A stretch of 58,745 nucleotides of DNA from a virus (IMGVR_UViG_2531839662_000025); one strand, 5' to 3'; shown: positions 20,742 to 58,745, counted from the first letter of the stretch. Notes: generated from the letters alone by a model not told the origin. Program-made: numbers and translations.

Positions 20742-20816
20742 ATCCCTGAAAGTGGGTGCCGATAATACTGAAAATTTATTCCATTAAATGAGCATTATCC
20801 TCTCTCATCCATTCCG

Positions 20817-25053: not shown

Positions 25054-25054
25054 A

Positions 25055-25615: not shown

Positions 25616-25664
25616 CGGTGTACTCCATAAAGCTGAAAAAGGAGGCCGAAGCCCCCTTTGCTCA

Positions 25665-26810: not shown

Positions 26811-27104
26811 GAAGGTTTTCTCGTATTGGTTAAGATTCAGGACGTGAAACCAACACGGAGGGAGCGCCGCCCGACACTCTCGGCATCTCGCAGATCAACC
26901 CGGCATCGCGCAGGGGGTCAGGCGGCATTGTGGCGGCTCACGTCTGAGTGCCACACGCCAACATATACATAAAAATCAGTATGTAAACATCAGCCAGAAT
27001 CACCGAACAACCTGGAACAACCACGAACAAATAATTTACAAAACCTGAAAAAATAAATAAGCTGTTCCGTACATTTTCTGCTCGTCAATCAGGAGGAACG
27101 AACT

Positions 27105-27578: not shown

Positions 27579-27580
27579 AA

Positions 27581-27614
27581 ATAATGGCCTGGAAAATACC
27601 AGGCCATTATTATT
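27581..27614. terminator. bidirectional rho-independent terminator
   Basis: 10-bp stem AATGGCCTGG/CCAGGCCATT with T/A runs on both sides, between convergent genes. Confidence 0.6.
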
Positions 27615-27902
27615 CTACCGTTTCACGGGATCACGCATTCTGCGCCTTATTTTCCACAGATATTCGATCATCGCTTCCACCTGCTCACGGTTGGTTGCGA
27701 AAATTTCCCCGGTCAGTGAGCTACGCAGAAAATCATGATGATCCACAAAAAATAACGCATCGGAAGAAAGCAGCCGGCGATATTTTTTTACTGTCGTGGT
27801 TTCCAGATCATCAAAACCATGAAACTTTTTATGTTGCTGAACTTCTTCAAATGTCACAGGCATGTTTCCTCCTGCTACCACGATACCAGAAACAGTTAAC
27901 AA
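27615..27902 (-). CDS. hypothetical protein
   Basis: Track ORF; likely start MPVTFEEV at 27863. Confidence 0.4.
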   Translation of the reverse strand: MLTVSGIVVAGGNMPVTFEEVQQHKKFHGFDDLETTTVKKYRRLLSSDALFFVDHHDFLRSSLTGEIFATNREQVEAMIEYLWKIRRRMRDPVKR

Positions 27903-28204
27903 CCGTTATCAATTATCCCCTTTTTTTTCGGGTAGTTCCTGAACATCTCACCGCCAGGTTTCTGTAAGCCCATCCCGGTATGTGTGCGGTTTATGGCCTC
28001 TTTCAGTATTCCGAAATTATCCGGTATGACTGGTTGGCGCGCTGCCTTACGGATACATTCCGCGCGACGCTTTGCCACCTGTTCGCGCTCCTTGTCAGTG
28101 CTCACCAGCCACATAACATCAGCCCAACGTGCCGCCGCTCTCCGGTACAGCCCTTTAGCCTCCAGTTCTTCCGCTTTGCTGTCTTTAATCATGCTGTACC
28201 TCAC
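27896..28204 (-). CDS. PerC-family transcriptional activator homolog
   Basis: About 100 aa containing AEELEAKGLYRRAAARWADVM, the PerC/Pch signature as I recall it. Confidence 0.55.
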   Translation of the reverse strand: MRYSMIKDSKAEELEAKGLYRRAAARWADVMWLVSTDKEREQVAKRRAECIRKAARQPVIPDNFGILKEAINRTHTGMGLQKPGGEMFRNYPKKKGIIDNGC

Positions 28205-28207
28205 TGC

Positions 28208-28633
28208 TTAAAACGGTATCCCGTCCCCGTACGGATCATCGTGCTGGCCTGTCTGTTGTTTTGCCCTGTTCAGTGCGTCAGTAGCCTGGCCCTGCTGGCC
28301 TTTTTTGCCGCCCGGTCGCGCCGTTCGCGCACTGATTACGCTGTCTGCGATGACCTGCCAGCCCTGCCGCATTTCGCCGTTCTGGCCTGTCCACTGGCTT
28401 ACCTGCATGTTACCCGCCACACTCACCAGTTCGCCTTTCTGGTGTTTTGCCAGTGCATCGGCCTGTCTGCCAAACGCCAGGACGGATAACCACATCGTCG
28501 CCGTTCCGTCATCTGCCTGGCTGCACGGCAGGGGAACCGCCATACTCGCCATAGCCATTTGTGTCCCCTTGCTGGTGGTCTTTAACTGCGGGTCAGCCAC
28601 CAGCCGCCCGTAAGCCGCTATCTGTGCTGTCAT
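28208..28633 (-). CDS. single-stranded DNA-binding protein-like
   Basis: 141-aa ORF with Gly/Gln-rich linker and acidic C-terminal tail ending DGIPF. Confidence 0.55.
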   Translation of the reverse strand: MTAQIAAYGRLVADPQLKTTSKGTQMAMASMAVPLPCSQADDGTATMWLSVLAFGRQADALAKHQKGELVSVAGNMQVSQWTGQNGEMRQGWQVIADSVISARTARPGGKKGQQGQATDALNRAKQQTGQHDDPYGDGIPF

Positions 28634-28696
28634 GCTGTCTGTTCTCCGGTTTTAACGTTGATTGTTACGCTTGTTTACACCCTTACGGTGAAATTC

Positions 28697-28820
28697 TGCG
28701 GGTTATAATCGCACTTTTGCGGGTTATAACTGCCGTTTTGCGGGTTACGTGCGGGTTATTGATTTCCTTTTTATTCATACAGTTAATGCACTTATACACA
28801 GGATAACCCGCATAACCCGC
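28697..28820. repeat. putative satellite replication origin: GCGGGTTAT iterons at 21-bp spacing plus inverted copies
   Basis: Direct copies at 28697, 28718, 28739, 28751; inverted at 28803, 28812; immediately downstream of primase. Confidence 0.65.
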
Positions 28821-28843
28821 AACTTTTCACCTCACACAGGGGG

Positions 28844-30964: not shown

Positions 30965-31260
30965 TTTTTACCTCTGGATGCGCTGAGCATGCTTTTTATT
31001 TTCTTAATATTTTCCCGTGCTTTTTCCCTGCTGGTGGGCTTACCGCGTGTTGCGTTCTGTACCAGAGAAAAATCACGCCGGAACTGATAAACAGGCATCA
31101 CGCAGTCATAGCCGTACCCATCACGGCGGTAAGTAACACACCGTCCCGCCACGCTTTTAATCGTTACAGTGCCGCCGTATTTATCTTTGAAAATATCGCC
31201 GGGGCGGATTTCAGGCCGAGCGGGGCCGCTGGCAGTAAAGCCAGAATTTTTCTGTTTCAT
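30961..31260 (-). CDS. hypothetical protein
   Basis: 99-aa ORF overlapping primase start. Confidence 0.45.
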   Translation of the reverse strand: MKQKNSGFTASGPARPEIRPGDIFKDKYGGTVTIKSVAGRCVTYRRDGYGYDCVMPVYQFRRDFSLVQNATRGKPTSREKARENIKKIKSMLSASRGKK

Positions 31261-31265
31261 GGTTT

Positions 31266-31493
31266 TTATTCCGCGTTTATTTTTTTATCGTGAATTTCGA
31301 TCGCTTTATTTAATTCGACGATTACCGTATCGAGTAATGAAATAAACGCACCAGCAAGATTAGATTCACGTTCATCTTCCGGCGCATCACTTAAACCATC
31401 AAGCCAGATAAGCAATATTTGCCGCAAACATTCACTGTTAGTCAGTGCGTTTTCTGCATGGCTCATTGATTTTAAATAACTGTCATCATGCAT
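31266..31493 (-). CDS. hypothetical protein
   Basis: 75-aa acidic ORF. Confidence 0.4.
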   Translation of the reverse strand: MHDDSYLKSMSHAENALTNSECLRQILLIWLDGLSDAPEDERESNLAGAFISLLDTVIVELNKAIEIHDKKINAE

Positions 31494-31689
31494 GGCTCAC
31501 CCCCTGACGAATACGGGCGGCGAATACCATCACACAGCCATCAGGAGATTGCTGGCGTGCTTCCTGTTCGCTGGTGGCCTCGATGTGAATTACGCGCGGT
31601 TGTGCCGTACTCAGGGCGATAAAACGCCAGATATATTTATTCAGGTTGTGCGAGTCCCGCCCTTGCGGGTGTGTGGTATGATTTAACAT
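31486..31689 (-). CDS. hypothetical small protein (67 aa)
   Basis: C-terminal part of the 357-aa track ORF; begins MLNHTTHP just downstream of the divergent promoter region. Confidence 0.35.
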   Translation of the reverse strand: MLNHTTHPQGRDSHNLNKYIWRFIALSTAQPRVIHIEATSEQEARQQSPDGCVMVFAARIRQGVSHA

Positions 31690-31766
31690 AGCTACCTCGA
31701 TACTCTTGCTATCGTTGGTGGTTAGACGCCCTGCATGTGTTGCGAGCACTGCGGGGCGTTGCTTAA

Positions 31767-31867
31767 TTTGAGTGACAAAACTCAAACTGTGCGCACAGAT
31801 TAAAATCATGTGTGCGCACATGTCAATACTTAACATCTCATTTTTTTTGCTGTATTGTGTGCGCCCA
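31767..31867. promoter_or_regulatory. divergent regulatory region with palindromic operator-like sites (TGTGCGCACA)
   Basis: Perfect palindromes at 31788-31797 and 31808-31821, half-site at 31856-31867, inverted repeat at 31767-31786. Confidence 0.5.
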
Positions 31868-31894
31868 TAAAGTCCATTTAAGTGAGGTGCATCA

Positions 31895-32092
31895 ATGTCT
31901 AGCGGTAACACAAACAACAAATCAGCAAAGAAAAATATTCGATTCCCACATGAGCTTATAGATGGGATTGATGCCAGCGTTGAACAAGAAAAATTAACTA
32001 ATCCTAGTGCTAATTTTTCCGCATGGGTCTTAGATGCCTGTGGACGCAAATTAAAATATGAACAGCGCCGGAAGGCCAAAGAATCAGAATAA
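31895..32092 (+). CDS. small putative DNA-binding regulator of the satellite
   Basis: 65-aa ORF transcribed away from the operator-containing promoter region. Confidence 0.4.
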   Translation: MSSGNTNNKSAKKNIRFPHELIDGIDASVEQEKLTNPSANFSAWVLDACGRKLKYEQRRKAKESE

Positions 32093-32134
32093 TCACTATC
32101 AGCGCCGTGGTGTGAGTAACTACGGCGCATTGCT

Positions 32135-32323
32135 ATGCAGGACAACACAATGACCGATAAAGAATTGACCAAAACATTATCACCGACACGGAAAAGACGG
32201 CGCAGAAAGATAGAGCATGAATCAGAAAGATTCGCACCTTGTTCGTTTGCTCTTGAGAAATTCCTTAAAGAGCGCAGGAAAAAGCTCTCGTTGCAAACCC
32301 TGGAACGAACCAAATCTGACTGA
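32135..32323 (+). CDS. small basic hypothetical protein
   Basis: 62-aa ORF followed by a plus-strand terminator. Confidence 0.35.
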   Translation: MQDNTMTDKELTKTLSPTRKRRRRKIEHESERFAPCSFALEKFLKERRKKLSLQTLERTKSD

Positions 32324-32389
32324 TCACATTGCCCACCAGCCGCAAATGTGGCATTGTTGGTGATGCTTTTGTTTTCCCTTGTTCCCACT

Positions 32390-32419
32390 GGCGACCCTTT
32401 TGCGGTCGCCTTTGTTTTG
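32390..32419 (+). terminator. rho-independent terminator
   Basis: GGCGACC/GGTCGCC stem followed by a T-run. Confidence 0.55.
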
Positions 32420-32703
32420 CCTGTTATCCGGCAATAGTGGCGCTTCGTCACCTGTCTGATATAATTCCACAGCTTATATTCATTTTTTGCGCAGTAGGTT
32501 AATTGTTCGCAAGGGCGCTCCGGCAACGGGGCGCTTTTTGTTTTTACCCACCAGCACAATAAAAATCTTCATTTTCCATTTTTGTAAAATTTCATGCTTT
32601 CCGGACGACTGGTCATATGTCATTTTTTAGCAGAAGATTTTGCCTTGCTGGTGGGTAGCTTCCCGGTCAACACGATGTACCGTATAATCAACACCGCGTG
32701 TGG

Positions 32704-33282
32704 TTACTGAATACGCTCACCAAAGTAAAACTCAGGCTGGTATTCACGTATCAGCCTTTTTTCTTCTTCCTCCAGCTCACGCTTTTTGCGCTTACATGCC
32801 TGTAGCTCCCTCCCCTTCTCACTGGCACTTATCTGGTATTGCTCTTTGCGGCGGGAAAAATCCTGTAATGCGCCCCACGGGATACCATAAGCCCCCGTTT
32901 TTCTGATACCCGGTATCACATTTCTGAATACCCAGTTACTGAAACGATGAGCAAATGTGCCAGGCGTCGTTGCTTTGCGGCTGCGGGCTATTAGTTTGTA
33001 GAAACCTGACTCGGAGATAATGCTCATATTCTGATTTCCTCCGGGGGTGTAAGTTAAATTTACTCCCTTTTCGTCATCATCAAGCATCTGCAACGCCGTA
33101 CGCGAATTGGTCAGTTCCAGCGCAGCACAAACATCCTTTGCAACAAACCACGGATCGCCGTTTAGATACACCACACGAACATCCACGCCATCAAAGCGCA
33201 GAACGACCAGATCACGAATATCACAGAATTTTTTCACATGACGTGCGTCACCCTTGCCCGTCACGGCAATATTTTTATTCAT
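32704..33282 (-). CDS. Bro-N domain protein (antirepressor-like)
   Basis: 192-aa ORF with Bro-N-like N-terminal region. Confidence 0.55.
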   Translation of the reverse strand: MNKNIAVTGKGDARHVKKFCDIRDLVVLRFDGVDVRVVYLNGDPWFVAKDVCAALELTNSRTALQMLDDDEKGVNLTYTPGGNQNMSIISESGFYKLIARSRKATTPGTFAHRFSNWVFRNVIPGIRKTGAYGIPWGALQDFSRRKEQYQISASEKGRELQACKRKKRELEEEEKRLIREYQPEFYFGERIQ

Positions 33283-33301
33283 TGCTTTTTACCTCACATA
33301 C

Positions 33302-33328
33302 AAAAAACCCCGCATTGCGTGGTGCGGG
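33302..33328 (-). terminator. rho-independent terminator
   Basis: 7-bp GC-rich stem followed by U-run on minus strand, after the AlpA-like gene. Confidence 0.6.
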
Positions 33329-33339
33329 GTTGTCGGTAA

Positions 33340-33618
33340 TTACTTATTGGCGTTTTTGTATGGGCTGTTTACTTCCTTTACTCCTGGCGGATGCATAACC
33401 CACCAGAGCACATCAGAGAGCAACCAGGAAACAGACACTTTCCCTAAATGAGCACGAGCAGGAAATGCTCCCTCCTGTTCAAGTACCCAACGTCTGCTTC
33501 TTGAAAGCCCGGTACGATTGGCACACTCATGTTCGCGTATACGGCGATCATACGGTTCGCCATGATCTTTCAGAATCTGAATGCGTTCTTCGGGTGTAGG
33601 ATAAATAAATTTTTGCAT
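33340..33618 (-). CDS. AlpA-family regulator / excisionase-like
   Basis: Track ORF 33340-33648; likely start MQKFIYP at 33618; small HTH protein. Confidence 0.55.
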   Translation of the reverse strand: MQKFIYPTPEERIQILKDHGEPYDRRIREHECANRTGLSRSRRWVLEQEGAFPARAHLGKVSVSWLLSDVLWWVMHPPGVKEVNSPYKNANK

Positions 33619-33681
33619 AAAAATATCACCTATAAAAAAACCCGCCAAAAGACGGGTTGATTATATCTCATTTAATTTAGC

Positions 33682-33915
33682 TCAGGGTTTCCATTCACCT
33701 TTTACCCATTCCAGCACCTCAGATAAGCGCCAGACTTTTGTTTGTGGGCCAATACATATTTTTCGTGGAAATTTTCCTTCCTTTTCAAGTAACGATCTGT
33801 GTCTCCTGCCAAGAGCGGTTAACCATGCACATTCATCTTCCTTAATCATCCTGTCGATTGTTTCATCATTTTCAAGTTCTTCACGCGTAACTATTTGAAT
33901 CATTACTGTCACCAC
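33682..33915 (-). CDS. AlpA-family regulator / excisionase-like
   Basis: 77-aa HTH ORF next to integrase. Confidence 0.55.
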   Translation of the reverse strand: MVTVMIQIVTREELENDETIDRMIKEDECAWLTALGRRHRSLLEKEGKFPRKICIGPQTKVWRLSEVLEWVKGEWKP

Positions 33916-35104
33916 TAATTTGCTTATTCAGATAGTCGTACCACCAGTTCATAGCTTCTTTTTTTCTGTCCATATACTGGCTTCTGTTATAAACCCCGGC
34001 AACACCGCCTAATGTGTGCCCAAGCAACTGTTCAACCACATTATGTTCAAAACCATGATCACTTAGTTTTGTGGCAAACACTCTTCGCATATCATGCGCC
34101 GTCCATTTCTCCGAGTGTTTCATCCTTTTCCATGTCTTACCGATAGTTACGCTTGCCGTACACTGACGCATATCAAACCCAATCACATTTTCTTTGTTAC
34201 CTGTTATTTTTTTTAACGTAACTAACCAGTTAAACATGCCATCAGGAATCGGTCTGATTATTTCCCTGCCATTTTTGCTATGATCAGCGGGAACGCGCCA
34301 TAATTTCTTATCAAAATCCCACTCTACCCAGGACGACAGTAATACTTCTGACAGTCGACAACCAAAAACTACCAGGAAACGTAAAATAATTCGGTTTTCA
34401 TATGATAATTCGTGATTGTCATAATCAGTATTAATACTTCGCCATAAATCTCTGATTTCATCATCTGTTAAAACCCTGCTTCTTCGCGCAGACTTTTTTC
34501 CCACATCACAGACCTCAAGATCATCAATTTCATGACTAATCGCGTATTTTCTTACCCTACAAAATTTAAGCGCCTGTTTTGATATACGCAACAAAGCTCC
34601 GGCCTGTACAGGTGCTACTTTTTTTATTTTGTCAAAACACTTAATCCACATAGATATAGAGCAATCACTAAGTGGTACATGACCAATCACCGGATAAATA
34701 TGTTTACCAAAGCACTGCCTGATATGTTCTGCTCCCCTACGCTTATCCATTGCATAATTATCAAGCCAGTATTCAAGTGCCTCACGAACGGTAACAGGTT
34801 GCAAGGTGGCTTCCCGTTCAATTTTTATCTGAATCCGTGGATCTCTGCCCTCCGCAAGCCAGGTTCGACACTGATCGCGCATCTCTCTCGCTGATTTGAG
34901 ACTCAGATCAGGATATTTTCCAAGTGTCAGCCAGATGGGCGCGGTTCCCCTTCCCGCCAGTCTGTAAAAGAAAACAAAACTAACACATCCGTATTTACTG
35001 ACCCGTACCGAAAGCCCGTTACCATCAGCGATGGTTTCCTGCCTCTCACTCCTGCGTCCAAGCAGGGAACGAAGTTTTTTATCGCTCAGTTTGTTTAGCG
35101 CCAT
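33881..35104 (-). CDS. tyrosine integrase (P4-type)
   Basis: Track ORF 33881-35140; likely start MALNKLSDKKL at 35104; P4-type N-terminal arm-binding pattern and C-terminal catalytic region. Confidence 0.8.
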   Translation of the reverse strand: MALNKLSDKKLRSLLGRRSERQETIADGNGLSVRVSKYGCVSFVFFYRLAGRGTAPIWLTLGKYPDLSLKSAREMRDQCRTWLAEGRDPRIQIKIEREATLQPVTVREALEYWLDNYAMDKRRGAEHIRQCFGKHIYPVIGHVPLSDCSISMWIKCFDKIKKVAPVQAGALLRISKQALKFCRVRKYAISHEIDDLEVCDVGKKSARRSRVLTDDEIRDLWRSINTDYDNHELSYENRIILRFLVVFGCRLSEVLLSSWVEWDFDKKLWRVPADHSKNGREIIRPIPDGMFNWLVTLKKITGNKENVIGFDMRQCTASVTIGKTWKRMKHSEKWTAHDMRRVFATKLSDHGFEHNVVEQLLGHTLGGVAGVYNRSQYMDRKKEAMNWWYDYLNKQISGDSNDSNSYA

Positions 35105-35124
35105 GTGATTTATAACCCGTTTTT

Positions 35125-35145
35125 GCAATACACAGTGCAATACAC
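35125..35145. repeat. arm-type repeat GCAATACACAGTGCAATACAC
   Basis: Direct repeat of the motif at 20377-20397. Confidence 0.5.
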
Positions 35146-35275
35146 AAATGATGAAAACAGCCAGAACCTTCCAGAAAAAACAAAAACGACGAACAAGAAA
35201 AAATCTTTTTCTTTCATTTGGTTACTAAAAAAATCAGGACAGGTCGCACTGTTGTTACGGCGTGATGTTACTTTC

Positions 35276-40270: not shown

Positions 40271-40345
<75 letters not shown>

Positions 40346-40348
40346 ATA

Positions 40349-40424
<76 letters not shown>

Positions 40425-44717: not shown

Positions 44718-44870
44718 TTACTTCTCAGATTCGTAGTCCACGAAGACAGCAACCTCCGTCTGGCCGGTTCGGATTCGTACCTCACAGAGGTCTTTCCTCG
44801 TTACCAGTGCCGTCACTATGACGGTTAAACAGATGACGATCAGGGCGATTAACATCGCCTTTTGCTGCTT
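44718..44870 (-). CDS. hok: Hok/Gef-family type I toxin
   Basis: 50-aa MKQQKAMLIALIVICLTVIVTALVTRKDLCEVRIRTGQTEVAVF; track ORF extends in frame upstream to 44930. Confidence 0.85.
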   Translation of the reverse strand, partial: KQQKAMLIALIVICLTVIVTALVTRKDLCEVRIRTGQTEVAVFVDYESEK

Positions 44871-45132
44871 CATAGCCTGCTTCTCCTTGCCTTTCGGCAC
44901 GTAAGAGGCTAACCTAGATTTGCCGTTCATAGATTGAGCCTCAGATTAATGTTAAGCGTCTTGCAGGACGCGTAATGTTAACTGGGGCTTTTCTCTATCT
45001 GCCTTTTGGTGTTCATGCCTGAGACAGATAGCCTCAAGCACCCGCAGTCATTCTACTTAACTAAGATTTCCCCGCAAACCGTTTTTGTCCGGCACAGTAA
45101 ATATCCAACTAAACCAATGGCGTTCGCTGTAT

Positions 45133-47441: not shown

Positions 47442-47471
47442 GTAAGCGGCTCGCCAGAACCGTATTGATAT

Positions 47472-49043
47472 TTACTGAGAGGTCAGATCAACTTTCCAGG
47501 GCAACAGATCGCGTACCCGGTTTGCCGGCCAATCCTGGATATGCTCAATGACGTAACGCAGCCATTTTTCTGGTTCCACATTGTTCAGACGGCATGTGCC
47601 GATCAGCGAGTACAACACCGCCGCATGTTCGCCACCGCTGTCGGAACCCGCGAAGAGCCAGTTTTTCCGGCCTACGGCCACTCCCCGTAAGGCGTTCTCT
47701 GCGATGTTGTTGTCGATTTCCACCCAGCCATTACTGCAGTACACGTTCAGGGCCTCCCACTGTTTCAGCAGGTATGCGAACGCTTTTGCCGTATCCGAGT
47801 GACGCGACAGTGTTTTCATCTGTTCCTGTATCCAGTCATACAGTGACTGCATCAGTGGAGCCGCTCTGGCTTTTCTTGCTGCCAGACGCTGTTCTGCTGA
47901 ACATCCCCGGACTTCTGCCTCGATGACATACAGTTCACCGATACGCTGCAGGGCTTCCGTGGTGATGTCGGTGGGCACTCTTGCATGCACATCGTGGATT
48001 TTTCTCCGGGCATGGGCCATACACGCGGCTTCCGTTATTCTGCCGGATTCGTATAACGCCCGGTAACCACCGTAAGCATCTGCCTGAAGCACACCGCTGT
48101 AACCGGCCAGGTGATTCTGTGGATGGATACCTTTCCGGTCCGGGCTGTACGCGAACCAGACCGCCGGGGGCATCTGTGAACCGGCGTTACGGTCATCACG
48201 GACATAGACCCACAGCCGGGCAGTTCTTGTTTTACCACTGCCCGGCTCCTGGACCGGAACGGGGATATCATCCGCATGGACTTTACCGGGCATCAGCACA
48301 TACTGGCGCAGGACGTCATACAGCGGCTCCAGCAGTTCAGCAACGGCACCTGTCCAGCGCCCCAGCGTGGCGCGGCTCAGCTCCACGCCCTGGCGACGGT
48401 ATATTTCTGACTGGCGGTATAACGGCAGATGGTCTGCATATTTCCCGGTAACAACATGGGCCAGAAGCCCCGCTCCGGCATAACTGCGTGCAATGGGTTT
48501 TGAAGGTACTGTTGCCTGCACGATATGGTCGCACCGACAACAGGCCAGTTTCGGACGTTGTGTTTCGATAACCTTAAAGGCGCTGCTGATAAGCTCCAGT
48601 TGCTCTGACACATCACACCCCAGAGGACTGAGGTCACCACCACAGGCCGGGCAGCATTCCTCTTCCGGCCGGATGACCCGGGTTTCACGGGGAAGTGAGG
48701 CCGGTAACGGTTTACGGGCTGAAGACTGGCGCAGGGCGGATGGCAGTACCGGGTCATATTGCTCACCCAGCGTTTCCGCCATTTCTTCCTGAAGTGCGCT
48801 GATTCGCTCCTGTGCTTCCTGTATCTGCCGTTCGGTTTTAGCGCGAAGTTTTTCTGAGCTTTTACCGAACTGCATGCGCTGCAGTTTCGCAACCAGCGCC
48901 TTCAGCCGGTTGATTTCGGAAGCATAAGCCGCCACCCGCTGTGAGAGCAGGCGGTTGTATTTCGCCATCTGGCGGATGGTGTCCTGTTGCGTCTGCAACA
49001 GTGCCCGCAGGCGGGCATTCTCATGAGCAAGTGAGGTGTCCAT
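47472..49043 (-). CDS. tnpC: IS66-family transposase TnpC
   Basis: 523-aa ORF with N-terminal leucine zipper, CCPACGG zinc motif and DDE-type core. Confidence 0.9.
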
Positions 49044-49062
49044 ATCCTCACTTTACAACGGG

Positions 49063-49411
49063 TTATATGCGGATGCCAGCGCGTTCCGTTCGTTTCGGGT
49101 GCTTCCAGTCGATGCCTTCGAGAAGCATGGACAACTGAGCCGGAGTAAGGTGAACCTTTCCATCGCGGGTGACCGGCCAGACGAAGCGGCCCCGCGTCCA
49201 GGCGTTTGGTGAAGAGGCACAGTCCGTCACTGTCAGCCCACAGCACTTTTATCTGGTCACCCCGGCGTCCGCGGAAGATGAACAGATGCCCGGAGAACGG
49301 GTCATCCTTCAGGACGTTCTGAACTTTTGAGGCCAGGCCGTTAAAGCCATTTCGCATATCGGTGATACCGGCAACCAGCCAGATACGCGAACCGGCAGGG
49401 AGAGATATCAT
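49063..49411 (-). pseudogene. tnpB: IS66-family TnpB, apparent +1 frameshift in a G-run
   Basis: Track ORF 48902-49411 leaves the expected frame after KRL; the shifted frame gives RFVWPVTRDGKVHLTPAQLSMLLEGIDWKHPKRTERAGIRI and stops just before tnpC. Confidence 0.5.
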
Positions 49412-50061
49412 CAGTGGCTGCTCCCTTTCATTTCGCGGATAAGTGTCTGTAATAACGCCGGTGTCAGTTCACCTTTCAGCCTGAGAGTTCCGGCCGGCAG
49501 AACCAGCTCGCAGCACAGACTGTCTGGCAGTGTATTTATCTGTTCAGGTATCTGCACTGGTGCCGGGATTTTATTATCCGGCTCCGGAGTTAACGTCACG
49601 GGAAGTAGCGATGTTTCATGTTCGCCGGGCGGTTGCAGGCCACCGTTACGCCAGAGATGCCGCCAGTTAAAGAGCAGGTTATCGTTAATTCCATTCTCTC
49701 GAGCTATTTGTGCGACACAGGCACCGGGTAAAAGAGTTTGCTGAACCAGTCTCCATTTAAACTCCGGTGAAAATCGGTTCCGGCGGGGTTTCTCTGCTTT
49801 CACAGGCTGAGTCACGGTCGGGGCTGAAGGGTATCGCCCCGGGAAAAGAGCCCGGGCCAGTTGCCCGCAGGAATATTCACCGGAAAGAGGCCAGTCAGTG
49901 AATACCTGGTGAAATCGCCTCACCAGAGAAAAAATGGTGGTTTTGCTGACACCGGTCTGCGCAGAAATGCGCGGGTACGACAGTGACTCGTCAAATCTCA
50001 GCTGTAGCACACGCAGGATCAATTCCGGATTGTCTGCCAGTACCGCTTTTCGTGCATTCAT
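49411..50061 (-). CDS. tnpA: IS66-family accessory protein TnpA (orf1)
   Basis: 216-aa HTH ORF at the start of the IS operon. Confidence 0.7.
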   Translation of the reverse strand: MNARKAVLADNPELILRVLQLRFDESLSYPRISAQTGVSKTTIFSLVRRFHQVFTDWPLSGEYSCGQLARALFPGRYPSAPTVTQPVKAEKPRRNRFSPEFKWRLVQQTLLPGACVAQIARENGINDNLLFNWRHLWRNGGLQPPGEHETSLLPVTLTPEPDNKIPAPVQIPEQINTLPDSLCCELVLPAGTLRLKGELTPALLQTLIREMKGSSH

Positions 50062-51455: not shown

Positions 51456-51881
51456 TTAGTGCATCACCACGGCATTTCCCGCCGGACCACCACGATTCAT
51501 CTGATTGAAACCAGCGATCGCCACTGCGACAAAATCATCAGCGTCTCTCACCAGTCGTTCCCGCATCTCCACCAGCTCCCGAAAATAGGCTGAACTGTGG
51601 CTGCGCATTCGGGCCACCAGCAGAGGTGGCATTGCCTTTTCGATCGCCGGTAACAGCGCCTGAATTTTTTTAACCGCATCAGGGGTGTCTTTCTCCACCC
51701 AGCGGAAAATTTTCTGAGTATTGCGAGCCAGGGCTTCCGGATGCCTGTCGTCATATAGCTCCGGGAACGTCATACCAAGCTCAAAATAAGCCTGGGTTAT
51801 TTCAGCTGCCGGAACTTTTTCACCGTCCGGATGCGCCCAGGCATTCATCGCCATGCGGATGTGTTCATGCTTGATTTTCAT
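51456..51881 (-). CDS. YdaT-like protein (CII-like regulator)
   Basis: 141-aa ORF closely resembling Rac YdaT as I recall it. Confidence 0.6.
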   Translation of the reverse strand: MKIKHEHIRMAMNAWAHPDGEKVPAAEITQAYFELGMTFPELYDDRHPEALARNTQKIFRWVEKDTPDAVKKIQALLPAIEKAMPPLLVARMRSHSSAYFRELVEMRERLVRDADDFVAVAIAGFNQMNRGGPAGNAVVMH

Positions 51882-52093
51882 TAATCATTCTTTCCTTCGT
51901 TCGAGGTGCTATCCTGCTTCTTGTAAAGTTCTGGGTTGTATTTCAATTCACCGTTAGTAATTTCATCCAGTTCCATTGCGCGAAGTTTGGGAATAACTGC
52001 TTTCCACCGCACAACAGCCACATGTGAAATTCCAAGAGCCTCAGCTACTAGTCGCTTTTTTTTGAAATAGCGCAGAACATCATCTTTGAACAT
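51881..52093 (-). CDS. Cro-like HTH regulator (YdaS-like)
   Basis: 70-aa HTH ORF divergent from the cI-like gene. Confidence 0.65.
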   Translation of the reverse strand: MFKDDVLRYFKKKRLVAEALGISHVAVVRWKAVIPKLRAMELDEITNGELKYNPELYKKQDSTSNEGKND

Positions 52094-52121
52094 AAAACTC
52101 TCCTGTTATTTCGAGCGGGAT

Positions 52122-52184
52122 GGTAACAATAGTTACATAGCAATGTCAACCATAGCAACATCACTTGGTAGTAACATTGGTTAC
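52122..52184. promoter_or_regulatory. operator sites in the cI/cro-like divergent promoter region
   Basis: GGTAACAATAGTTAC (52122-52136) and GTAACATTGGTTAC (52171-52184); palindromic half-sites GTAAC/GTTAC. Confidence 0.55.
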
Positions 52185-52859
52185 ATGAAAAACACTATCA
52201 GCGAACGTATTCGGAATCGTCGAAAAGACGTTGGATTAACCCAACAGCAGGTTGCGAAAGCAATCGGCATATCTCGTGTATCCGTAACAAAATGGGAAAA
52301 TGGCTCTTCAAAACCTGACGGTGAGAATTTGCATCTACTGTCAAAATTGCTTTCCAAATCTCCTGAATGGATTCTTTATGGAAAGGACTGTCACGATAAA
52401 ACCGATGATCTGCGTCTGAATCAGTACCCTTACATTAGTGACAACATCGCCCGGTTGCCCGTTTTAACGTGGGAACAGGCTGGTTATTGGGATATGAGTT
52501 GTCCAGTAACCGAGATTCCTGGTATTAAGAATTGGGTTGATGTCATGACAAAAACCGCTGAAAACTCTTTTTTATTGCATGTTGAGGGAGATGCGATGAC
52601 AAACTCTAACGGCCTCCCAACCATCCCCGACGGATCTACCGTGCTGATCACACCATGCTCAAGTAACATTAGAGAACTGGTGGGAAAAATAATCTTAATC
52701 CAATTGGAAGGAACGCCAAACGTAACACTAAAAAAAGTTGCGATTGACGGACCAAACATCTATCTGTTGTCACTGAATCCGCTTTACAAACCCATCGAAC
52801 TGAATGGTGGTTACACCATTAAAGGTAAAGTTTCACAAATACATCAATACTTAGACTGA
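52185..52859 (+). CDS. CI-like repressor (HTH plus S24 LexA-like peptidase domain)
   Basis: Track ORF 52086-52859; likely start MKNTISER at 52185 (alternative 52143). Confidence 0.75.
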   Translation: MKNTISERIRNRRKDVGLTQQQVAKAIGISRVSVTKWENGSSKPDGENLHLLSKLLSKSPEWILYGKDCHDKTDDLRLNQYPYISDNIARLPVLTWEQAGYWDMSCPVTEIPGIKNWVDVMTKTAENSFLLHVEGDAMTNSNGLPTIPDGSTVLITPCSSNIRELVGKIILIQLEGTPNVTLKKVAIDGPNIYLLSLNPLYKPIELNGGYTIKGKVSQIHQYLD

Positions 52860-52864: not shown

Positions 52865-52891
52865 AACCCGCATTCATTGCGGGTTTTTTAT
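52865..52891 (+). terminator. rho-independent terminator after cI-like gene
   Basis: AACCCGC/GCGGGTT stem followed by TTTTTT. Confidence 0.65.
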
Positions 52892-52930
52892 GCTCTCGAA
52901 TGTACCTTTTGCAACACTGTATTGACTCGA

Positions 52931-52950
52931 AAGGTAACTCTTGTTACCTT
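52931..52950. promoter_or_regulatory. operator, perfect palindrome AAGGTAAC-TCTT-GTTACCTT
   Basis: Same GGTAAC half-site as the cI/cro operators, overlapping a TTGACT -35-like hexamer at the head of the leftward operon. Confidence 0.55.
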
Positions 52951-53050
52951 AACGACATACCAACCCACCCCGCCCCACAGAACGCAGGGCAATACTTCGA
53001 GTTACCAGGCAGTGGTCAGGGGTTAAGTAGCCAGCCCGAGGCGTAAGAAC

Positions 53051-53185
53051 ATGACGGCAGGGTTCAACTTTAACTATGCAGCAGGTTTTTGTTCCGCTAC
53101 CCCGGCGTTAAGGGGAAACAGCACTGAGAGGAATCAGTATGCAGAAACGAGAACCCGTCATCATCGCGCCAGACTATACCGATGA
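53051..53185 (+). CDS. possible small ORF (44 aa, YdfB-like position)
   Basis: Hand-translated MTAGFNFNYAAGF...; overlaps the start of the next gene in another frame. Confidence 0.25.
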   Translation: MTAGFNFNYAAGFCSATPALRGNSTERNQYAETRTRHHRARLYR

Positions 53186-53357
53186 TGAACTTTATGAGTG
53201 GATGCGCCAGAAAATTACGGCAGCGCAGGACCTGAAGTGGGCCAATGAAGCCAGGGCTAAGCAGGCTGAAAATCTGTCCGCTCTGGAGCAGGATATCACC
53301 AGGCTGGAAAAAGCAGCGGCATTAAGCATTGCCAGAATGATTACATACCCGCGTTAA
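53139..53357 (+). CDS. YdfC-like small protein
   Basis: 72-aa ORF resembling Qin YdfC as I recall it. Confidence 0.55.
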   Translation: MQKREPVIIAPDYTDDELYEWMRQKITAAQDLKWANEARAKQAENLSALEQDITRLEKAAALSIARMITYPR

Positions 53358-53492
53358 TAGCTAACCAACGAGGCTAAGGTTGGTAATTAAGGAGTTCTCC
53401 ACGGGTCAGGTGGAGTGCGTGCGCCGGACACGGGTGAGCATCCGGCACGTTCTTTAAAAATCTGGATAGTCCCAACTTATTTAAACGGTTAA

Positions 53493-53927
53493 TTATCTTG
53501 AGTTCATCCAGAACTTATTATTGCAAGCGGGGCAAAAAGTACGAAAATGAGCATCAAAGCGCATTATTTCCATTGGCTGAAGTACAGATATTACCTTTTT
53601 TCCAAAGCATTGTGGGCAAAGATGCACAGTTATCTCAGTATCGCCTATAAATTGCTTCTTGGAATATACAAGGGTTCCAGAATCAAGCTTGTTAAGCTTG
53701 TAACCTTCCGCCTGTCGCTGAAAATCTTCTGTCTCTGCAATTTTTGCTTTGAGATGCATTATCTCTTCATCACGAAAGCGGATCGCATCGCAAAGAGAGA
53801 AGCATTCCGCCTGAAGCGTGATTAGTTTGTTCTGAAGTTCAATAGTTGCGGCTTTAACTTCTGCATCCGTTTTTGCGTCATTAATAACCTTAGCGAGACC
53901 AGCTGTCTCCTTTATCGCAGCCATAGC
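53493..53927 (-). CDS. hypothetical coiled-coil / zinc-ribbon protein (reverse-oriented moron)
   Basis: Track ORF 53493-54068; likely start MAAIKETAG at 53927; C-terminal CPQC...CPAC; AT-rich; antisense to the surrounding plus-strand operon. Confidence 0.5.
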   Translation of the reverse strand, partial: AMAAIKETAGLAKVINDAKTDAEVKAATIELQNKLITLQAECFSLCDAIRFRDEEIMHLKAKIAETEDFQRQAEGYKLNKLDSGTLVYSKKQFIGDTEITVHLCPQCFGKKVISVLQPMEIMRFDAHFRTFCPACNNKFWMNSR

Positions 53928-54249
53928 TGCTGACAGTTCTGCTATCACGTTGAGTACTCTTCTCGTTGTTGGGGATATCCGGATTATACGAATTTCTTGT
54001 TGTTGGGGAATAACAGGAACCACCTCGCCTGACGTGGTTAAAAGCAGGCACACAACGCGAAAGCGCACGGCGAGGTAGCTGGTTCATAGATAGCCTGTCG
54101 TTAAATTTTCGTCGACAGTGCGCTTCCGGTTGTGGCACTCCGCGAAATGGCGCGGCGGTAAGTATGGCGGGGTTATCCTTGCCCCATTAGTGGCACCGGG
54201 TTGTCAGGTTGACCATACGCCTGAGTGACAACCCCGCTGCAACAACCCA

Positions 54250-54306
54250 TGTTGATTACCTTTTTGGCGGCATCAGTTTCATTGCTGGCTGATGTCCGCC
54301 CTTTTT
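54250..54306 (+). ncRNA. dicF: DicF-like small RNA
   Basis: TTTGGCGGCATCAGTTT...CTGATGTCCGCCCTTTTT resembles E. coli DicF from memory, including terminator hairpin and T-run, immediately upstream of dicB; ends approximate. Confidence 0.45.
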
Positions 54307-54489
54307 AAAGTGAATTTTGTGATGCGGTGAATGCGGCTCAGCGCACGCGGAACAGTTAAAAAGGCCAGTTGACTTCCGTATTGGTTCTTATGGGTGGGTT
54401 CTCTGTATCCGGCGTTAATTATTAACTGGTTAACGTCACCTGGAGGCACCAGGCACCGCATCACAAAATTCATTGTTGAGGACGCGATA

Positions 54490-54678
54490 ATGGAAACGTT
54501 ATTACCAAACGTTAATACGTCTGAAGGTTGTTTTGAAATTGGTGTCAGAATCAGTAACCCTGTATTTACTGAAGATGCCATTAATAAGAGAAAACACGAA
54601 CGGGAGTTATTAAATAAAATATGCATTGTTTCAATGCTGGCCCGTTTACGTCTGATGCAAAAAGGATACTGGCAATGA
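54490..54678 (+). CDS. dicB: cell division inhibitor DicB
   Basis: 62-aa METLLPNVNTSEGCFEIGVRISNPVFTEDAINKRKHERELLNKICIVSMLARLRLMQKGYWQ, near-identical to K-12 DicB as recalled. Confidence 0.8.
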   Translation: METLLPNVNTSEGCFEIGVRISNPVFTEDAINKRKHERELLNKICIVSMLARLRLMQKGYWQ

Positions 54679-54878
54679 ATACTGCTATTGCCCTCACTCT
54701 GACTGTTTTTCTTAATACTGGCGAGCCTGTTGACATGGTTATTGACATTTACGGTTCAATGAAAGAATGCATGGCTGCCGCAGCAGAACAAAAAATTCCC
54801 GGTAACTGCTATCCGGTCGATAAAGTTATTCACATGGACAATAACGAAATCCCGGCAGGACTTAAAACAGCACCGTAA
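54675..54878 (+). CDS. YdfD-like small protein
   Basis: 67-aa ORF with hydrophobic N-terminus directly after dicB (ATGA overlap). Confidence 0.55.
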   Translation: MNTAIALTLTVFLNTGEPVDMVIDIYGSMKECMAAAAEQKIPGNCYPVDKVIHMDNNEIPAGLKTAP

Positions 54879-54958
54879 TTAATATCCGGTTTCATTTTTA
54901 TATGCCAGCAATGGCAGGGATTTGTTCACCCTTAAATCTGTAATGAGGTTAAAACAAA

Positions 54959-57439
54959 ATGAGTAAAGTCTTTATTTGCGCCGCCATTCCGGACGAACAG
55001 GCAATAAAGGAAGAAGGTGCAGTCGCTGTAGCCACTGCCATTGAAGCCGGCGACGAACGCCGCGCCCGTGCCAAATTTACCTGGCAATTCCTGGAGCAAT
55101 ATCCGGCTGCTCAGGACTGCGCTTATAAATTTCTTGTCTGCGAGGATAAACCCGGCATGCCCCGCCCTGCCATCGACTCCTGGGATACCGAATATATGCT
55201 GGAAAACCGCTGGGATGAGGAAGGCGCTTCCTTTGTTCCGGTCGAACCAGAATCCGATCCGATGAACGTCAATTTTGACAAGCTGTCCCTTGAAGTACAG
55301 AACGCGGTCCTGGTTAAGTTCGGTACATGTGAAAACATCACCGTTGATATGGTGATTAGTGCACAGGAATTGTTGCAGGAGGACATGGCAACATTCGACG
55401 GGCATATCGTTGAGGCACTGATGAAAATGCCTGAAGTTAACGTCATGTATTCAGAACTAAAGCTGTTCGCCATCGGGTGGGTTAAACATAAATGTAAGCC
55501 GGGCGCAAAATGGCCTGAGATCCAGACAGAATTACGCACCTGGAAAAAACGTCGCGAAGCCGAACGCAAAGAAACCGGGAAATACACGTCTGTTGTTGAT
55601 CTTGCCCGCGCCAGAGTCAACCGGCAGCACACTGAAAACTCAGCAGGAAAAATCAACCCCGCCACTGCCGCCATTCGTCGCGAATACAAGCAGACATGGA
55701 AAACGCTGGATGAAGAACTGGCCTACGCTCTGTGGCCTGGCGATATTAATGCCGGAAACATTGACGGCAGCATCCATCGCTGGGCAAAAAATGAAGTTAT
55801 CGACAAAGATCGCGAAGACTGGAAGCGCATTTCCGCATCAATGCGCAAACAACCCGATGCCGTTCGCTACGACCGTCAGACTATTTTTGGCCTTGTCCGT
55901 GAGCGTCCGATCGACATTCACAAAGATCCCGTGGCACTGAACAAATACATCACTGAATACCTGGTGACAAAGGGCGTGTTTGAGGATGAAGAAACAGACC
56001 AGAACACTACTGATATTCTCCAGCCGTCAGCAGCACAAACTGATGCAGTGGAAACTGAAGTATCTGATACCCAAAAAAATGAAAGCACGCTGGAAACTGA
56101 ACCATCTGTAGAGCGTGAGGGGCCGTTCTACTTCCTTTTCACCGATAAGGATGGCGAAAAATATGGTCGTGCAAACAAACTTTCTGGTCTGAATAAGGCG
56201 CTGGCTGCAGGGGCTACTGAAATCACGAAAGAAGAATATTTTGCCCGCAAAAACGGCACATACTCAGGTTCACAACAAAATACTGGTGCATCTGACACGA
56301 CCGCACAACCGGAGCCGGTAAAAGTTACCGCTGACGAAGTAAACAAAATTATGCAGGCAGCCAATATCAGCCAGCCTGACGCCAATCAGTTGCTTGCTGT
56401 ATCACGTGGTGAATTTGTTGCAGGGATTAGCGACCCGAATGATCCGAAATGGGTGAAGGGGATTGAAACCCGCGATTCAGTGAATCAGAACCAGCAAGAA
56501 ACGGAACAGAACGACCAGAAAGCGGAACAAAACAGCCCAAATGCGTTACAAAACGAGCCAGAAACGAAACAACCTGAGCCAGTAGCGCAACAGGAAGCGG
56601 AAAAAGTCTGCACCGCCTGCGGTCAGACCGGCGGCGGCAACTGCCCTGATTGTGGTGCGGTGATGGGCGACGCAACATACCAGGAAACATTCGATGAAGA
56701 GAATCAGGTTGAAGTTCAGGAAAATGATCCGGAGGAAATGGAAGGCGCTGAACATCCACACAAGGAGAATGCTGGCAGCGCTCAGGACCACGCCAGCGAT
56801 AATGAAACTGGCGAGACGGCAGATCCCTTAATTGCGGTGAACGGTCATCACGTTATCACATCCACCAGCAGAGTGTGGTACCACCTGATGATCGACCTTG
56901 AAACAATGGGAACCAACACCAATGCGCCCATCGTGGTTATTGGTGCGGTTTTCTTCGACCCACAAACAGGGGAAATCGGGCCAGTATTTTATATCGTTAT
57001 CAGTCTGACTGACGCAATGAATACAGGGGCTGTTCCTGACGGTGGAACCATCGAATGGTGGCTGAAGCAGTCCAGTGAAGCCAGAGCTGCCATTTTAACA
57101 GACCAGGTAAAACTGAAGGATGCCCTTTCGCGGTTTCGGGAGTTCATCAACGAATACTCAGATGAAAAATTCGTTCAGGTATGGGGTAATGGTGCAACTT
57201 TCGATAACGCAATTTTGCGCACCTCATACGAACGTCTGGACATCCCCTGCCCGTGGCGCTACTACAACGATCGCGATGTACGCACAATCGTTGAGCTGGG
57301 AAAAACAATCGACTTTGATGCCAGAACAGTTATTCCATTTGAAGGCGTGCGCCACAATGCGCTGGATGATGCCCGTCACCAGGCAAAATACGTTACAGCC
57401 ACGATACAAAAACTGATCCCGAATCCGGTTGATTTTTAA
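54959..57439 (+). CDS. large early-left protein with C-terminal DEDD-type 3'-5' exonuclease domain
   Basis: 826-aa ORF; C-terminal ~200 aa carry exonuclease-like [18 protein letters not shown] and HNALDDARH motifs; internal [16 protein letters not shown] zinc ribbon. Confidence 0.55.
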
Positions 57440-57505: not shown

Positions 57506-57757
57506 ATGTACGAATTAACTCTATCGCCAGCAGAGATTCAAGAGATCACGAAATACGAGCGATACACAAAACAGCAACACCAGTTAAGGCTGCACGGTAT
57601 CCCATTTGTAATCGGTCCTAAAAACGAACCAATAGTTCTTCGCAGGGATATTCCACACGGACTGACTACGATGCCAAAAGCACCTGAACTGGTTTCCGCT
57701 GAACCCGATTTTGAGGCGCTGAACAATGGGAAGACCAAGAAAAAACAAAAAAGATAA
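57506..57757 (+). CDS. putative excisionase (Xis-like)
   Basis: 83-aa ORF immediately upstream of and overlapping the integrase. Confidence 0.4.
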   Translation: MYELTLSPAEIQEITKYERYTKQQHQLRLHGIPFVIGPKNEPIVLRRDIPHGLTTMPKAPELVSAEPDFEALNNGKTKKKQKR

Positions 57758-58745
57758 TGCACTACCACCGCGTGTTAGATCGAATGGTTACAGTTACGTA
57801 TGGAAACCCGAAGGAAGCACAAGAACTATAGGGCTCGGAAGAGTGCGGGAAACCAGCGTAGCTAAAGTCTGGCAAAATTATGAGCTGGAAAAAGCAAAAC
57901 TCCACAACATAATGACAGTAGCTAAATTATGGCACATGTTTATGGACTCCCCTGCATTTACAGAACTGGCCCCCCGAACCCAAAAAGATTATCGGCAACA
58001 TCAAAGGGCATTGTTGGCAGTATTCGGAAAAGTGCTTGCTGATAATGTAAAAATTGAACAGGTAAGAATTTTCATGGATAAGCGAGGACTTGAGAGCAAG
58101 ACCCAGGCAAACCATGAACTGGCAAGTCTGAGCCGTGTATACGGATGGGGATATGAGCGTGGGTATGTGAAAAATAATCCATGCAAAGGAGTCAGAAAAT
58201 TCACACTTAAAGCCCGTACTGTTTACATCACCGATGAACAGTATGCTGCAATATATGCGGAAGCAATTCCACAGTTACGTATTGCAATGGAGATATCCTA
58301 TCTTTGTGCGGCAAGGCTCGGTGATGTACTCGAGCTGAAATGGCAGGATATTATGGATAAAGGGATTTACATTGAGCAAAACAAGACCGGCACTAAACAA
58401 ATCAAGGAATGGTCTCCGCGATTACGTACGGCGATCCAGTTAGCCCGAAATGTATCTTCCGGCACATGCGAGTATGTGATCAACACAACCAAAGGCGGGA
58501 AGGTAATAGCCAAGACGCTGAACAACTGGTGGAATCAGGCTAAACGTGCGGCCGAGCAAAAAGCCGGCGTTCCGTTTGGGTGCAACTTCCATGACATAAA
58601 AGCCAAAGGGATTTCAGATTACGAAGGCAGCAGTCGCGACAAACAAATTTTCAGTGGACACAAAACAGAAAATCAGGTGTTGATTTACGATCGTAAAACC
58701 AAAATCACCCCAACACTGGATTTGCCGCTTGTGGTCAGTAAGTAG
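57726..58745 (+). CDS. tyrosine integrase (lambda-type) of the host prophage
   Basis: 339-aa ORF ending at the window edge; phage-integrase N-terminal SAM-like and C-terminal catalytic regions. Confidence 0.8.
   Translation: MGRPRKNKKDNALPPRVRSNGYSYVWKPEGSTRTIGLGRVRETSVAKVWQNYELEKAKLHNIMTVAKLWHMFMDSPAFTELAPRTQKDYRQHQRALLAVFGKVLADNVKIEQVRIFMDKRGLESKTQANHELASLSRVYGWGYERGYVKNNPCKGVRKFTLKARTVYITDEQYAAIYAEAIPQLRIAMEISYLCAARLGDVLELKWQDIMDKGIYIEQNKTGTKQIKEWSPRLRTAIQLARNVSSGTCEYVINTTKGGKVIAKTLNNWWNQAKRAAEQKAGVPFGCNFHDIKAKGISDYEGSSRDKQIFSGHKTENQVLIYDRKTKITPTLDLPLVVSK

Follow-up and report, generated by a model that had tools for sequence, protein, structure and literature searches.

Among described systems, the closest to the locus analysed here is Qin of Escherichia coli K-12, in which the genes run dicC / dicA / ydfA-ydfB-ydfC-dicF-dicB-ydfD-ydfE-intQ and the exonuclease gene is interrupted by IS2. 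Its repressor, DicA, is a short-tailed protein of 135 aa, and the operator of its dicB promoter (dicBp) lies between the -35 and -10 elements. K-12 DicB blocks Z-ring assembly in a MinC-dependent manner and also inhibits the ManYZ phage receptor. Lambda and P22 provide a second model, with divergent cro and cI genes, operators between them, an extra operator at the leftward promoter downstream of cI, and an early-left operon that closes with exo, xis and int. CI in this model joins a helix-turn-helix (HTH) domain to an S24 domain. A third arrangement is found in the Salmonella Gifsy prophages, whose non-cleavable repressors are inactivated by antirepressors.

A dicF-dicB-ydfD module, at 84-85% nucleotide identity, is also present in the isolated temperate coliphages Tritos, vB_EcoM-606R7, vB_EcoS-689R5 and mEp460_ev081, which are deposited as phage genomes, in contrast to the decayed prophage described below. 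Tritos and 606R7 resemble our locus in their order of cro / repressor / ydfABC / dicF / dicB / ydfD / exonuclease / int, and DicF is annotated in Tritos. Their repressors, however, are different: Tritos encodes a 139-aa, HTH-only CI of the size of DicA, and 606R7 a 214-aa repressor with HTH and S24 domains that is 31% identical to ours and reads DDTM at the nucleophile motif. Phage mEp460_4F5 was considered as a further example of an S24 repressor followed by dicB and was set aside, as no dicB module adjoins its repressor. The Stx2c phage record LC727889 is unannotated.

The window, by which we mean the whole stretch of DNA analysed here (58,745 nucleotides), was compared with the chromosome of porcine E. 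coli UMNF18, and a 2.9-kb stretch around the locus was found to be 100% identical to it. We consider it probable, as a single explanation that takes in the repression, the blindness to SOS and the reading of the DicF-position RNA set out below, that the locus belongs to a decayed lambdoid prophage of UMNF18, of which it forms the immunity region and the early-left (pL-type) operon, and which adjoins yccA and falls in the same phage group as K-12 Qin. The RefSeq annotation of UMNF18 lists a toxin YdaT family protein and a Cro/CI family regulator on one strand, followed on the opposite strand by a 'LexA family protein', ydfC, a reverse-strand hypothetical gene, dicB, a DUF1482 protein, an exonuclease, a DUF4224 protein and a tyrosine integrase, after which come the host genes yccA and tusE. 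The body of this prophage makes up the remainder of the window. It contains an IS679 insertion, a frameshifted replication gene and several other pseudogenes, and its large-terminase gene is interrupted by a separate inserted element, an island with an integrase of its own; because of this damage the prophage looks defective. Some of the frameshifts may be sequencing or assembly errors in an older genome assembly, which leaves the degree of decay uncertain. The inserted island encodes a BRO-N domain protein, a fold common in antirepressors, and a genome search matched several related prophage regions in UMNF18, at six places. Operons of the dicBF type are already known from several prophage contexts and have RefSeq annotation, and a survey listed UMNF18 with a Qin-like copy (PMC5069750).

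The immunity region follows the canonical lambdoid layout of cro, OR, cI, terminator and a pL heading the int-proximal early operon, and in this respect is not unusual. A cro-like gene of 70 aa (51881-52093, minus strand; Pfam P22_Cro, E=2.8e-16; Cro/CI family regulator in RefSeq) diverges from the repressor gene. The OR-like region between them (52120-52184) contains, by pattern search, two perfect copies of GTAAC-N4-GTTAC, at 52123-52136 and 52171-52184, the second of which directly abuts the repressor ATG at 52185. A promoter scan placed a cro promoter-like site on the minus strand, with -35 TTGACA at 52149-52144 and -10 TACCAT at 52125-52120. The repressor gene is followed on the plus strand by a probable terminator at 52866-52889 (ACCCGC-ATTCATT-GCGGGT, then TTTTTT), which was read from the sequence and was not listed by the terminator scan. 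Beyond it lies a pL-like promoter with an OL operator (52922-52950, plus strand), composed of a -35 TTGACT (52922-52927), the operator GTAACTCTTGTTAC (52934-52947) and a -10 TACCTT (52945-52950). The operator-promoter that the sequence-only reading had placed at 52931 is thus real as a sequence feature, a perfect operator between a TTGACT -35 and a weak -10, for which the promoter scan made no call. Perfect GTAAC-N4-GTTAC occurs only three times in the 58.7 kb (52123, 52171 and 52934), always within the immunity region, where about one match would be expected by chance in the window with one mismatch allowed. Divergent cro and cI, shared operators and an extra operator at the leftward promoter of an int-proximal operon are therefore all seen in the sequence, as in lambda and P22. 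The same three operators recur at loci L134 and L204, whose deeply diverged repressor alleles carry serine at the nucleophile position.

The position of the operator between the -35 and -10 elements of pL is also the layout of K-12 dicBp, although the operators themselves differ, being GTAAC-N4-GTTAC in the window and GTTAG-N6-CTAAC-like in K-12. Unlike lambda and P22, the window has no N-like ORF after pL and instead has a conserved non-coding leader element (52960-53070, plus strand). This element is 94-99% identical in isolated phages, including phages with two other repressor types, and is near-invariant between immunity lineages whose cI genes differ at a dS of ~0.8; it had no match in Rfam.

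Downstream of the leader element, gene order and orientation from repressor to integrase are like those of Qin. The first gene, ydfC (53139-53357, plus strand; 72 aa; phrog_1744; ydfC in RefSeq), encodes a product identical to K-12 YdfC at 70 of 72 residues (97%). By blastn against K-12 Qin, positions 53115-53448 match the ydfC region at 95% and positions 54040-55725 match dicF to ydfE at 86%. In contrast to K-12, ydfA and ydfB are absent, and an insertion of 590 bp (53449-54039) parts ydfC from dicF. It contains a reverse-strand ORF of unknown function (53493-53948, minus strand; 151 aa, or 191 aa with a GTG start at 54068; phrog_1244, E=1e-51), which is without counterpart in K-12 Qin and matched no family in Pfam, NCBIfam or PADLOC. 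A defence-system annotation for this ORF, DicB and YdfD was dropped when PADLOC gave no match.

The dicB gene (54490-54678, plus strand; dicB in RefSeq) encodes a 62-aa cell-division inhibitor that matches Pfam DicB (PF05358) from end to end (profile positions 1-62; E=8e-39; 131.6 bits against a cut-off of 27) and is identical to K-12 DicB at 56 of 62 residues (90%). This degree of identity to a characterised protein suggests that DicB here would inhibit FtsZ-ring assembly through MinC, and it may likewise inhibit the ManYZ phage receptor. In lambda the division inhibitor is Kil (kil) rather than DicB. The following ydfD-like gene (54675-54878, plus strand; 67 aa) overlaps the dicB stop by 4 nt, as does the K-12 gene, and its product, which is 70% identical to K-12 YdfD, matches DUF1482 (PF07358; E=4e-20; 71.8 bits against a cut-off of 25) and phrog_1092 (E=1.5e-35). 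K-12 YdfD is annotated as a 'lysis protein' in RefSeq. Next comes an 826-aa exonuclease (54959-57439, plus strand; Pfam Rv2179c-like 3'-5' exonuclease domain, E=6e-68; also in RefSeq). It is the intact counterpart of the K-12 ydfE pseudogene, with which its gene aligns as far as the IS2 insertion. An excisionase (57506-57757, plus strand; RefSeq annotation) and an integrase (57726-58745, plus strand; ORF and RefSeq CDS), which reaches the window edge, close the operon in the manner of lambda and P22. Pfam, Rfam and blastn to K-12 thus bear out the proposal that a DicF-position RNA, a 62-aa DicB and a YdfD-like ORF occur here in the Qin order. Poor alignment to dicF or dicB, which the sequence-only reading had set against itself, was found in part for dicF, by a sub-threshold Rfam score and a lack of predicted ftsZ pairing, and not for dicB.

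The RNA at the dicF position (54250-54306, plus strand) is a minority allele, here termed 'B', and consists of a U-rich 5' tail, a 13-bp hairpin (54266-54300) and a U-run. A search with the Rfam DicF model (RF00039) gave nothing at the curated threshold; under permissive settings 54250-54301 was matched at 32.4 bits (E=1.2e-4), compared with a gathering score of 48 bits and 76.7 bits for the K-12 dicF control. By score it therefore falls outside RF00039, and by its position between ydfC and dicB and its Rho-independent terminator hairpin it is a dicF. The 200 nt preceding dicF are 90% identical to K-12, and the leader that follows it is 96-97% identical for most of its length, a short stretch at 54373-54393 being divergent, whereas dicF itself reaches only 72% and requires 11 gap columns. 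Deleted from the window allele are the 12 nt that open K-12 DicF (UUUCUGGUGACG), and the loop has changed from UUUUACUCCGUGA to UUUCAUUG, with the loss of CUCCG. The hairpin and U-run are retained and are stronger than in K-12 (-21 kcal/mol, z=-3.8), and the terminator scan called a terminator-like site with a T-run at 54269-54296.

In experiments, pairing of DicF with ftsZ and pykA was mapped to residues of its 3' region, and pairing with xylR to residues at its 5' end (PMC5069750). From our reading of the sequences, the lost CUCCG loop of K-12 DicF would pair with the ftsZ ribosome-binding site; K-12 dicF thus has both a 5' seed and an ftsZ-pairing loop that the window allele is without. Pairing was estimated as the cofold ddG with the ftsZ translation-initiation region (-60 to +30), using 150 random 90-nt segments as background. 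In this minimum-free-energy estimate, made for one target region and without Hfq effects, K-12 DicF gave -16.3 kcal/mol, a value equalled by 0.7% of random segments, whereas the window allele gave -3.9 kcal/mol, which is background level and was equalled by 36% of them. By computation, then, neither ftsZ complementarity nor the 5' xylR seed of DicF is found in the window allele. Plain RNA duplex energies, which have no accessibility term, produced artefactual full-length duplexes with no discrimination and were replaced by the cofold and its background set.

Could the RNA nevertheless be fully functional and repress ftsZ translation despite its divergence? It occupies the orthologous position, carries a terminator hairpin and a U-rich tail suited to Hfq, matches DicF weakly in Rfam, and retains in its loop AGUUUC, the complement of a GAAACU that closely precedes the start codon of ftsZ. 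We nonetheless consider this unlikely, given a predicted binding to ftsZ at background against -16.3 kcal/mol for K-12 and the absence of both CUCCG and the 12-nt 5' end. Because that seed and loop are gone, loss of ftsZ repression is predicted, and this function is probably absent from the window allele. The term 'DicF-like' used in the sequence-only reading therefore holds for position and hairpin and fails for the Rfam threshold and for predicted ftsZ pairing. We read the RNA as a positional orthologue of dicF with a good terminator, for which no antisense action on ftsZ is predicted, and as a probable intrinsic terminator and 3'-UTR-derived sRNA, which would act at least as an attenuator and possibly as an sRNA with other targets.

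Viral contigs were scanned between the conserved flanks, and several discrete alleles were found at the dicF position. The K-12 type is in a large majority, and the window type is accompanied by at least five further types, each with its own combination of 5' tail and hairpin. Against Rfam DicF, other alleles of this locus scored 58.9, 43.5 or 37.6 bits or were undetected. The window type is present in 85 of 5426 complete E. coli genomes, and the K-12 type occupies 57 of the 65 loci that have both the repressor gene and dicB. We rejected the idea of a uniquely hypervariable dicF cassette, as diversity in dicF (0.11-0.14) is lower than at the dicB 3' end and ydfD 5' end (0.2-0.36). It does exceed that of the immediate flanks (0.02-0.05) in the 65 loci, which were selected via the repressor gene. 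The variants at the dicF position are discrete recombining alleles, and nothing beyond that is claimed. Surveys of dicF by >99% identity or by the Rfam threshold overlook positional alleles such as the window type, and synteny-based surveys would wrongly assign ftsZ control to them.

Between dicF and dicB lies a structured leader (54309-54474, plus strand) that stops just before the dicB ribosome-binding site; a perfect inverted repeat of 19 bp (54311-54329 / 54454-54472) forms the long stem that closes it. The same fold is obtained for the window and K-12 (z=-5.8 and -3.7, respectively), and the corresponding K-12 segment is a reported site of RNase III processing (PMC5069750, PMC9438474). 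Rfam gave a sub-threshold match to STnc100 in this leader.

The repressor gene (52185-52859, plus strand) encodes, from the ATG at 52185, a CI-type protein of 224 aa (225 codons with the stop; 238 aa from the RefSeq start at 52143) with matches to Pfam HTH_3 (E=2e-16) and Peptidase_S24 (E=1e-16). It aligned with lambda CI structures over 207 residues (lambda CI 24-226), and its HTH also aligned with the P22 C2 DNA-binding domain. The N-terminal HTH and C-terminal S24 fold that mark MEROPS S24 are thus both present, as in the CI of lambda and P22. The Ala-Gly cleavage site is retained as Ala99-Gly100 (EQAGYW; lambda VQAGMF, A111-G112), and so is the lysine general base, as Lys183 (TLKKV; lambda TFKKL, K192). 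In contrast, lambda Ser149 (VEGNSMT) corresponds to Ala137 (VEGDAMT), and the resulting GDAM departs from the nucleophile motif G-[DNE]-S-M.

The nucleophile column of 80 aligned sequences contained serine in 73 and alanine in five. The alanine set is made up of the window protein, its closest E. coli clusters (98% and 90% identical, and a fragment) and a Salmonella cluster at 70% identity; clusters at 88% and 67% identity to the window repressor have serine. In the IMG/VR viral contigs whose flanks match, this residue is encoded by GCG in 87 of 88 and by TCA in one. The possibility that the alanine codon is a sequencing error was rejected, since GCG recurs in 87 independent viral contigs and the gene is at least 99% identical in 679 genomes. 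Alanine alleles conserve the Ala-Gly site and the lysine, even at 70% identity in Salmonella. Their retention would need explaining if cleavage were irrelevant, and leaves room for cleavage in trans or for a purely structural constraint.

The repressor gene is carried by 702 of 5426 complete E. coli genomes (13%), in 679 of them at ≥99% nucleotide identity, and no repressor at least 60% identical was present in any of 50,697 phage records. This absence fits poor inducibility, without proving it. The serine allele (GDSM, 88% identical) is rare and was seen at locus L134 and in E. coli O178:H19 2012C-4431, where the same three operators are followed by a ydfA-like gene, dicB, a ydfD-like gene and the exonuclease. 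Between the alanine and serine lineages dS is ~0.8 and omega ~0.06-0.08, which points to an old divergence under purifying selection, a dN/dS comparison that is unable to isolate selection on the nearly clonal alanine lineage.

Relative to DicA, the HTH of the window repressor is 57% identical over 65 residues and the C-terminal two-thirds differ; where DicA is short-tailed, the window protein has a complete C-terminal domain of the S24 type whose nucleophile is dead. The NCBI DicA model (NF007257) matched at E=2e-22 and 79.4 bits, below its cut-off of 101, and over profile positions 4-79 only, so that the match is not full-length. The repressor gene has dicB no more than 4.5 kb downstream of it in 66 of 88 related loci, and most of the others are truncated contigs. 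The Pfam domains thus support the claim that the operon sits downstream of a CI-type repressor with a LexA-like (S24) C-terminal domain instead of DicA. Describing this as a module retained under a 'different repressor' is correct for the S24 domain and overstated otherwise, in view of the 57% identity to the DicA HTH, the shared promoter layout and the hundreds of genomes in which the arrangement occurs. It is an immunity-module swap within one phage group.

Substitution of Ser by Ala at the nucleophile position abolishes self-cleavage in LexA. Self-cleavage of the window repressor is not expected because its nucleophile serine is likewise replaced by alanine, and RecA-stimulated self-cleavage is most likely impossible. 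The operon would therefore be locked off toward DNA damage, much as it is under DicA, which lacks the domain altogether. As predicted, repression here resembles that of the Gifsy prophages in not being relievable by self-cleavage of the repressor; in contrast to them, no antirepressor or LexA-controlled gene was found in the window, and the repressor still has a complete S24 fold and its cleavage-site motif.

A non-self-cleaving repressor could still answer DNA damage or other signals indirectly, through an antirepressor, its own or that of a co-resident prophage, or by trans cleavage through a serine-bearing S24 partner. The conservation of the Ala-Gly site and the lysine in alanine alleles hints at a retained interaction surface, UMNF18 has its several related prophage regions, and a BRO-N domain protein is encoded on the inserted island. 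However, no LexA box, including one able to drive an antirepressor, was found in the 58.7-kb window, nor did ORFs or the RefSeq annotation reveal an antirepressor gene next to the immunity region, and we regard such a route as improbable.

The sequence-only reading had gone further, suggesting that SOS induction could release the inhibition of division if the CI-like repressor is RecA-cleavable. Activated RecA would then cleave the repressor and DNA damage would derepress pL, with DicF and DicB acting as a SulA-like SOS checkpoint encoded by the phage; for all that the S24 domain, the Ala-Gly pair aligned with the lambda site and the catalytic lysine speak for it, this is very improbable and unsupported for the present allele, in which alanine stands at the position of lambda Ser149, as it does in nearly all close relatives, no LexA box is found, and the repressor type is missing from phage records though 13% of E. 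coli genomes have the gene. RecA-triggered release of a division block is thus unlikely for the alanine allele. It is plausible for the rare sister serine allele of L134 and O178:H19 2012C-4431, with its same operators and downstream operon.

In the reading we prefer, that of a prophage operon held off by a repressor that does not cleave itself, dimers of the CI-type repressor would bind the three GTAAC-N4-GTTAC operators and keep both pL and pR off. Binding at 52922-52950 would silence ydfC, the DicF-position RNA, dicB, ydfD, the exonuclease, xis and int. Were repression lost, transcription would proceed through ydfC to the DicF-position hairpin, where partial termination would free a small RNA. 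Read-through RNA would form the long stem upstream of dicB, an RNase III substrate in K-12, and be processed, and would yield DicB, with its MinC-dependent block of the FtsZ ring, the lysis protein YdfD, the exonuclease, Xis and Int. Because the repressor has no nucleophile and the prophage is decayed, the operon is expected to be constitutively silent, with a function close to that of Qin under DicA.

The locus is a known kind of system and a textbook module, and what is noteworthy in it is the Ser-to-Ala repressor together with a DicF allele without ftsZ complementarity. Tentatively, and as a joint proposal that may well hold without yet being the probable one, we suggest that the dominant allele of an immunity type found in ~13% of complete E. 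coli genomes is a natural 'pseudo-protease' CI that leaves the prophage and its dicB operon SOS-blind, a domestication converging on DicA, and that the dicF position is an exchangeable seed cassette, with at least seven discrete alleles between the same flanks, of which the window allele has been retargeted from ftsZ. The label 'LexA family protein' on such a repressor invites the inference of SOS inducibility, and the missing nucleophile shows that it can mislead for a prophage repressor that is very common in E. coli. This bears on predicting the response to DNA-damaging antibiotics, both of prophages and of toxic cargo such as dicB and ydfD.

The leader between dicF and dicB (window 54299-54522, forward strand) was matched by the Rfam family STnc100, a Salmonella sRNA candidate, at 33.8 bits against a cut-off of 47 and therefore below threshold. 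Sub-threshold matches to the same Rfam family were also given by the homologous leaders of K-12, where the operon lies in the cryptic prophage Qin, and of other loci, and STnc100 and the prophage leader may be one and the same element. The Shine-Dalgarno and start region of dicB (54476-54492) is base-paired, in the fold of minimum free energy, with the 5' tail of the RNA at the DicF position (54246-54262), the two being brought close in the predicted structure by the long stem, a 19-bp inverted repeat that closes the leader. In K-12, the same pairing is predicted to be weaker, with 4 bp. The predicted pairing could be a means of occluding dicB translation in cis prior to processing, or it could have arisen by chance.

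Directly 3' of the pL-like promoter lies a non-coding, GC-rich leader (52960-53070, forward strand), which isolated phages share at 94-99% identity, among them phages with two further repressor types. It is almost unchanged across immunity lineages whose cI genes stand at a dS of about 0.8. A search of this leader against Rfam gave no match, and no N-like ORF was found 3' of pL in the window. The leader could be a cis-acting antitermination element of the nut or put kind.

Between ydfC and dicF, an ORF has been inserted on the reverse strand (53493-53948, possibly extending to 54068), encoding 151 aa as annotated in RefSeq or 191 aa if an upstream GTG start is used. The N-terminal half of its product is coiled-coil-like and CxxC...CxxC motifs lie towards the C-terminus. 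It matches phrog_1244, annotated as 'unknown function', and a neighbouring match in another strain is labelled 'ECs_2282 family putative zinc-binding protein'; a defence-system search of the ORF returned no match.

Elsewhere in the prophage, the large-terminase gene is split by a reverse-strand element (about 20300-35260) that has an integrase of its own and encodes regulators, a BRO-N protein, an Icd-like division inhibitor and a DUF927 protein. It also brings a separate major capsid protein, prohead protease, portal, head-tail connector, HNH endonuclease and both terminase subunits, small and large. In gene content, the element resembles a capsid-forming phage-inducible chromosomal island. 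The late region contains two neighbouring tRNA genes with the annotations Thr and Gly (40274-40424, reverse strand), and a sok antisense RNA (44868-45043, reverse strand; 112 bits) adjoins a Hok/Gef gene. The IS66-family element IS679 (tnpA, tnpB and transposase; about 47456-50044) interrupts a DUF977 gene immediately past the replication genes, and the replication-initiator-like gene beside it is annotated as frameshifted.

In the isolated phage vB_EcoM-606R7, an HTH+S24 repressor is encoded 5' of dicBF (L129, the locus of this phage, 2318-2959). It carries DDTM at the position of the G-D/N/E-S-M motif of self-cleaving repressors, shows no evident Ala-Gly where the cleavage site aligns, and is a second non-canonical S24 repressor within the same phage group as the window prophage.
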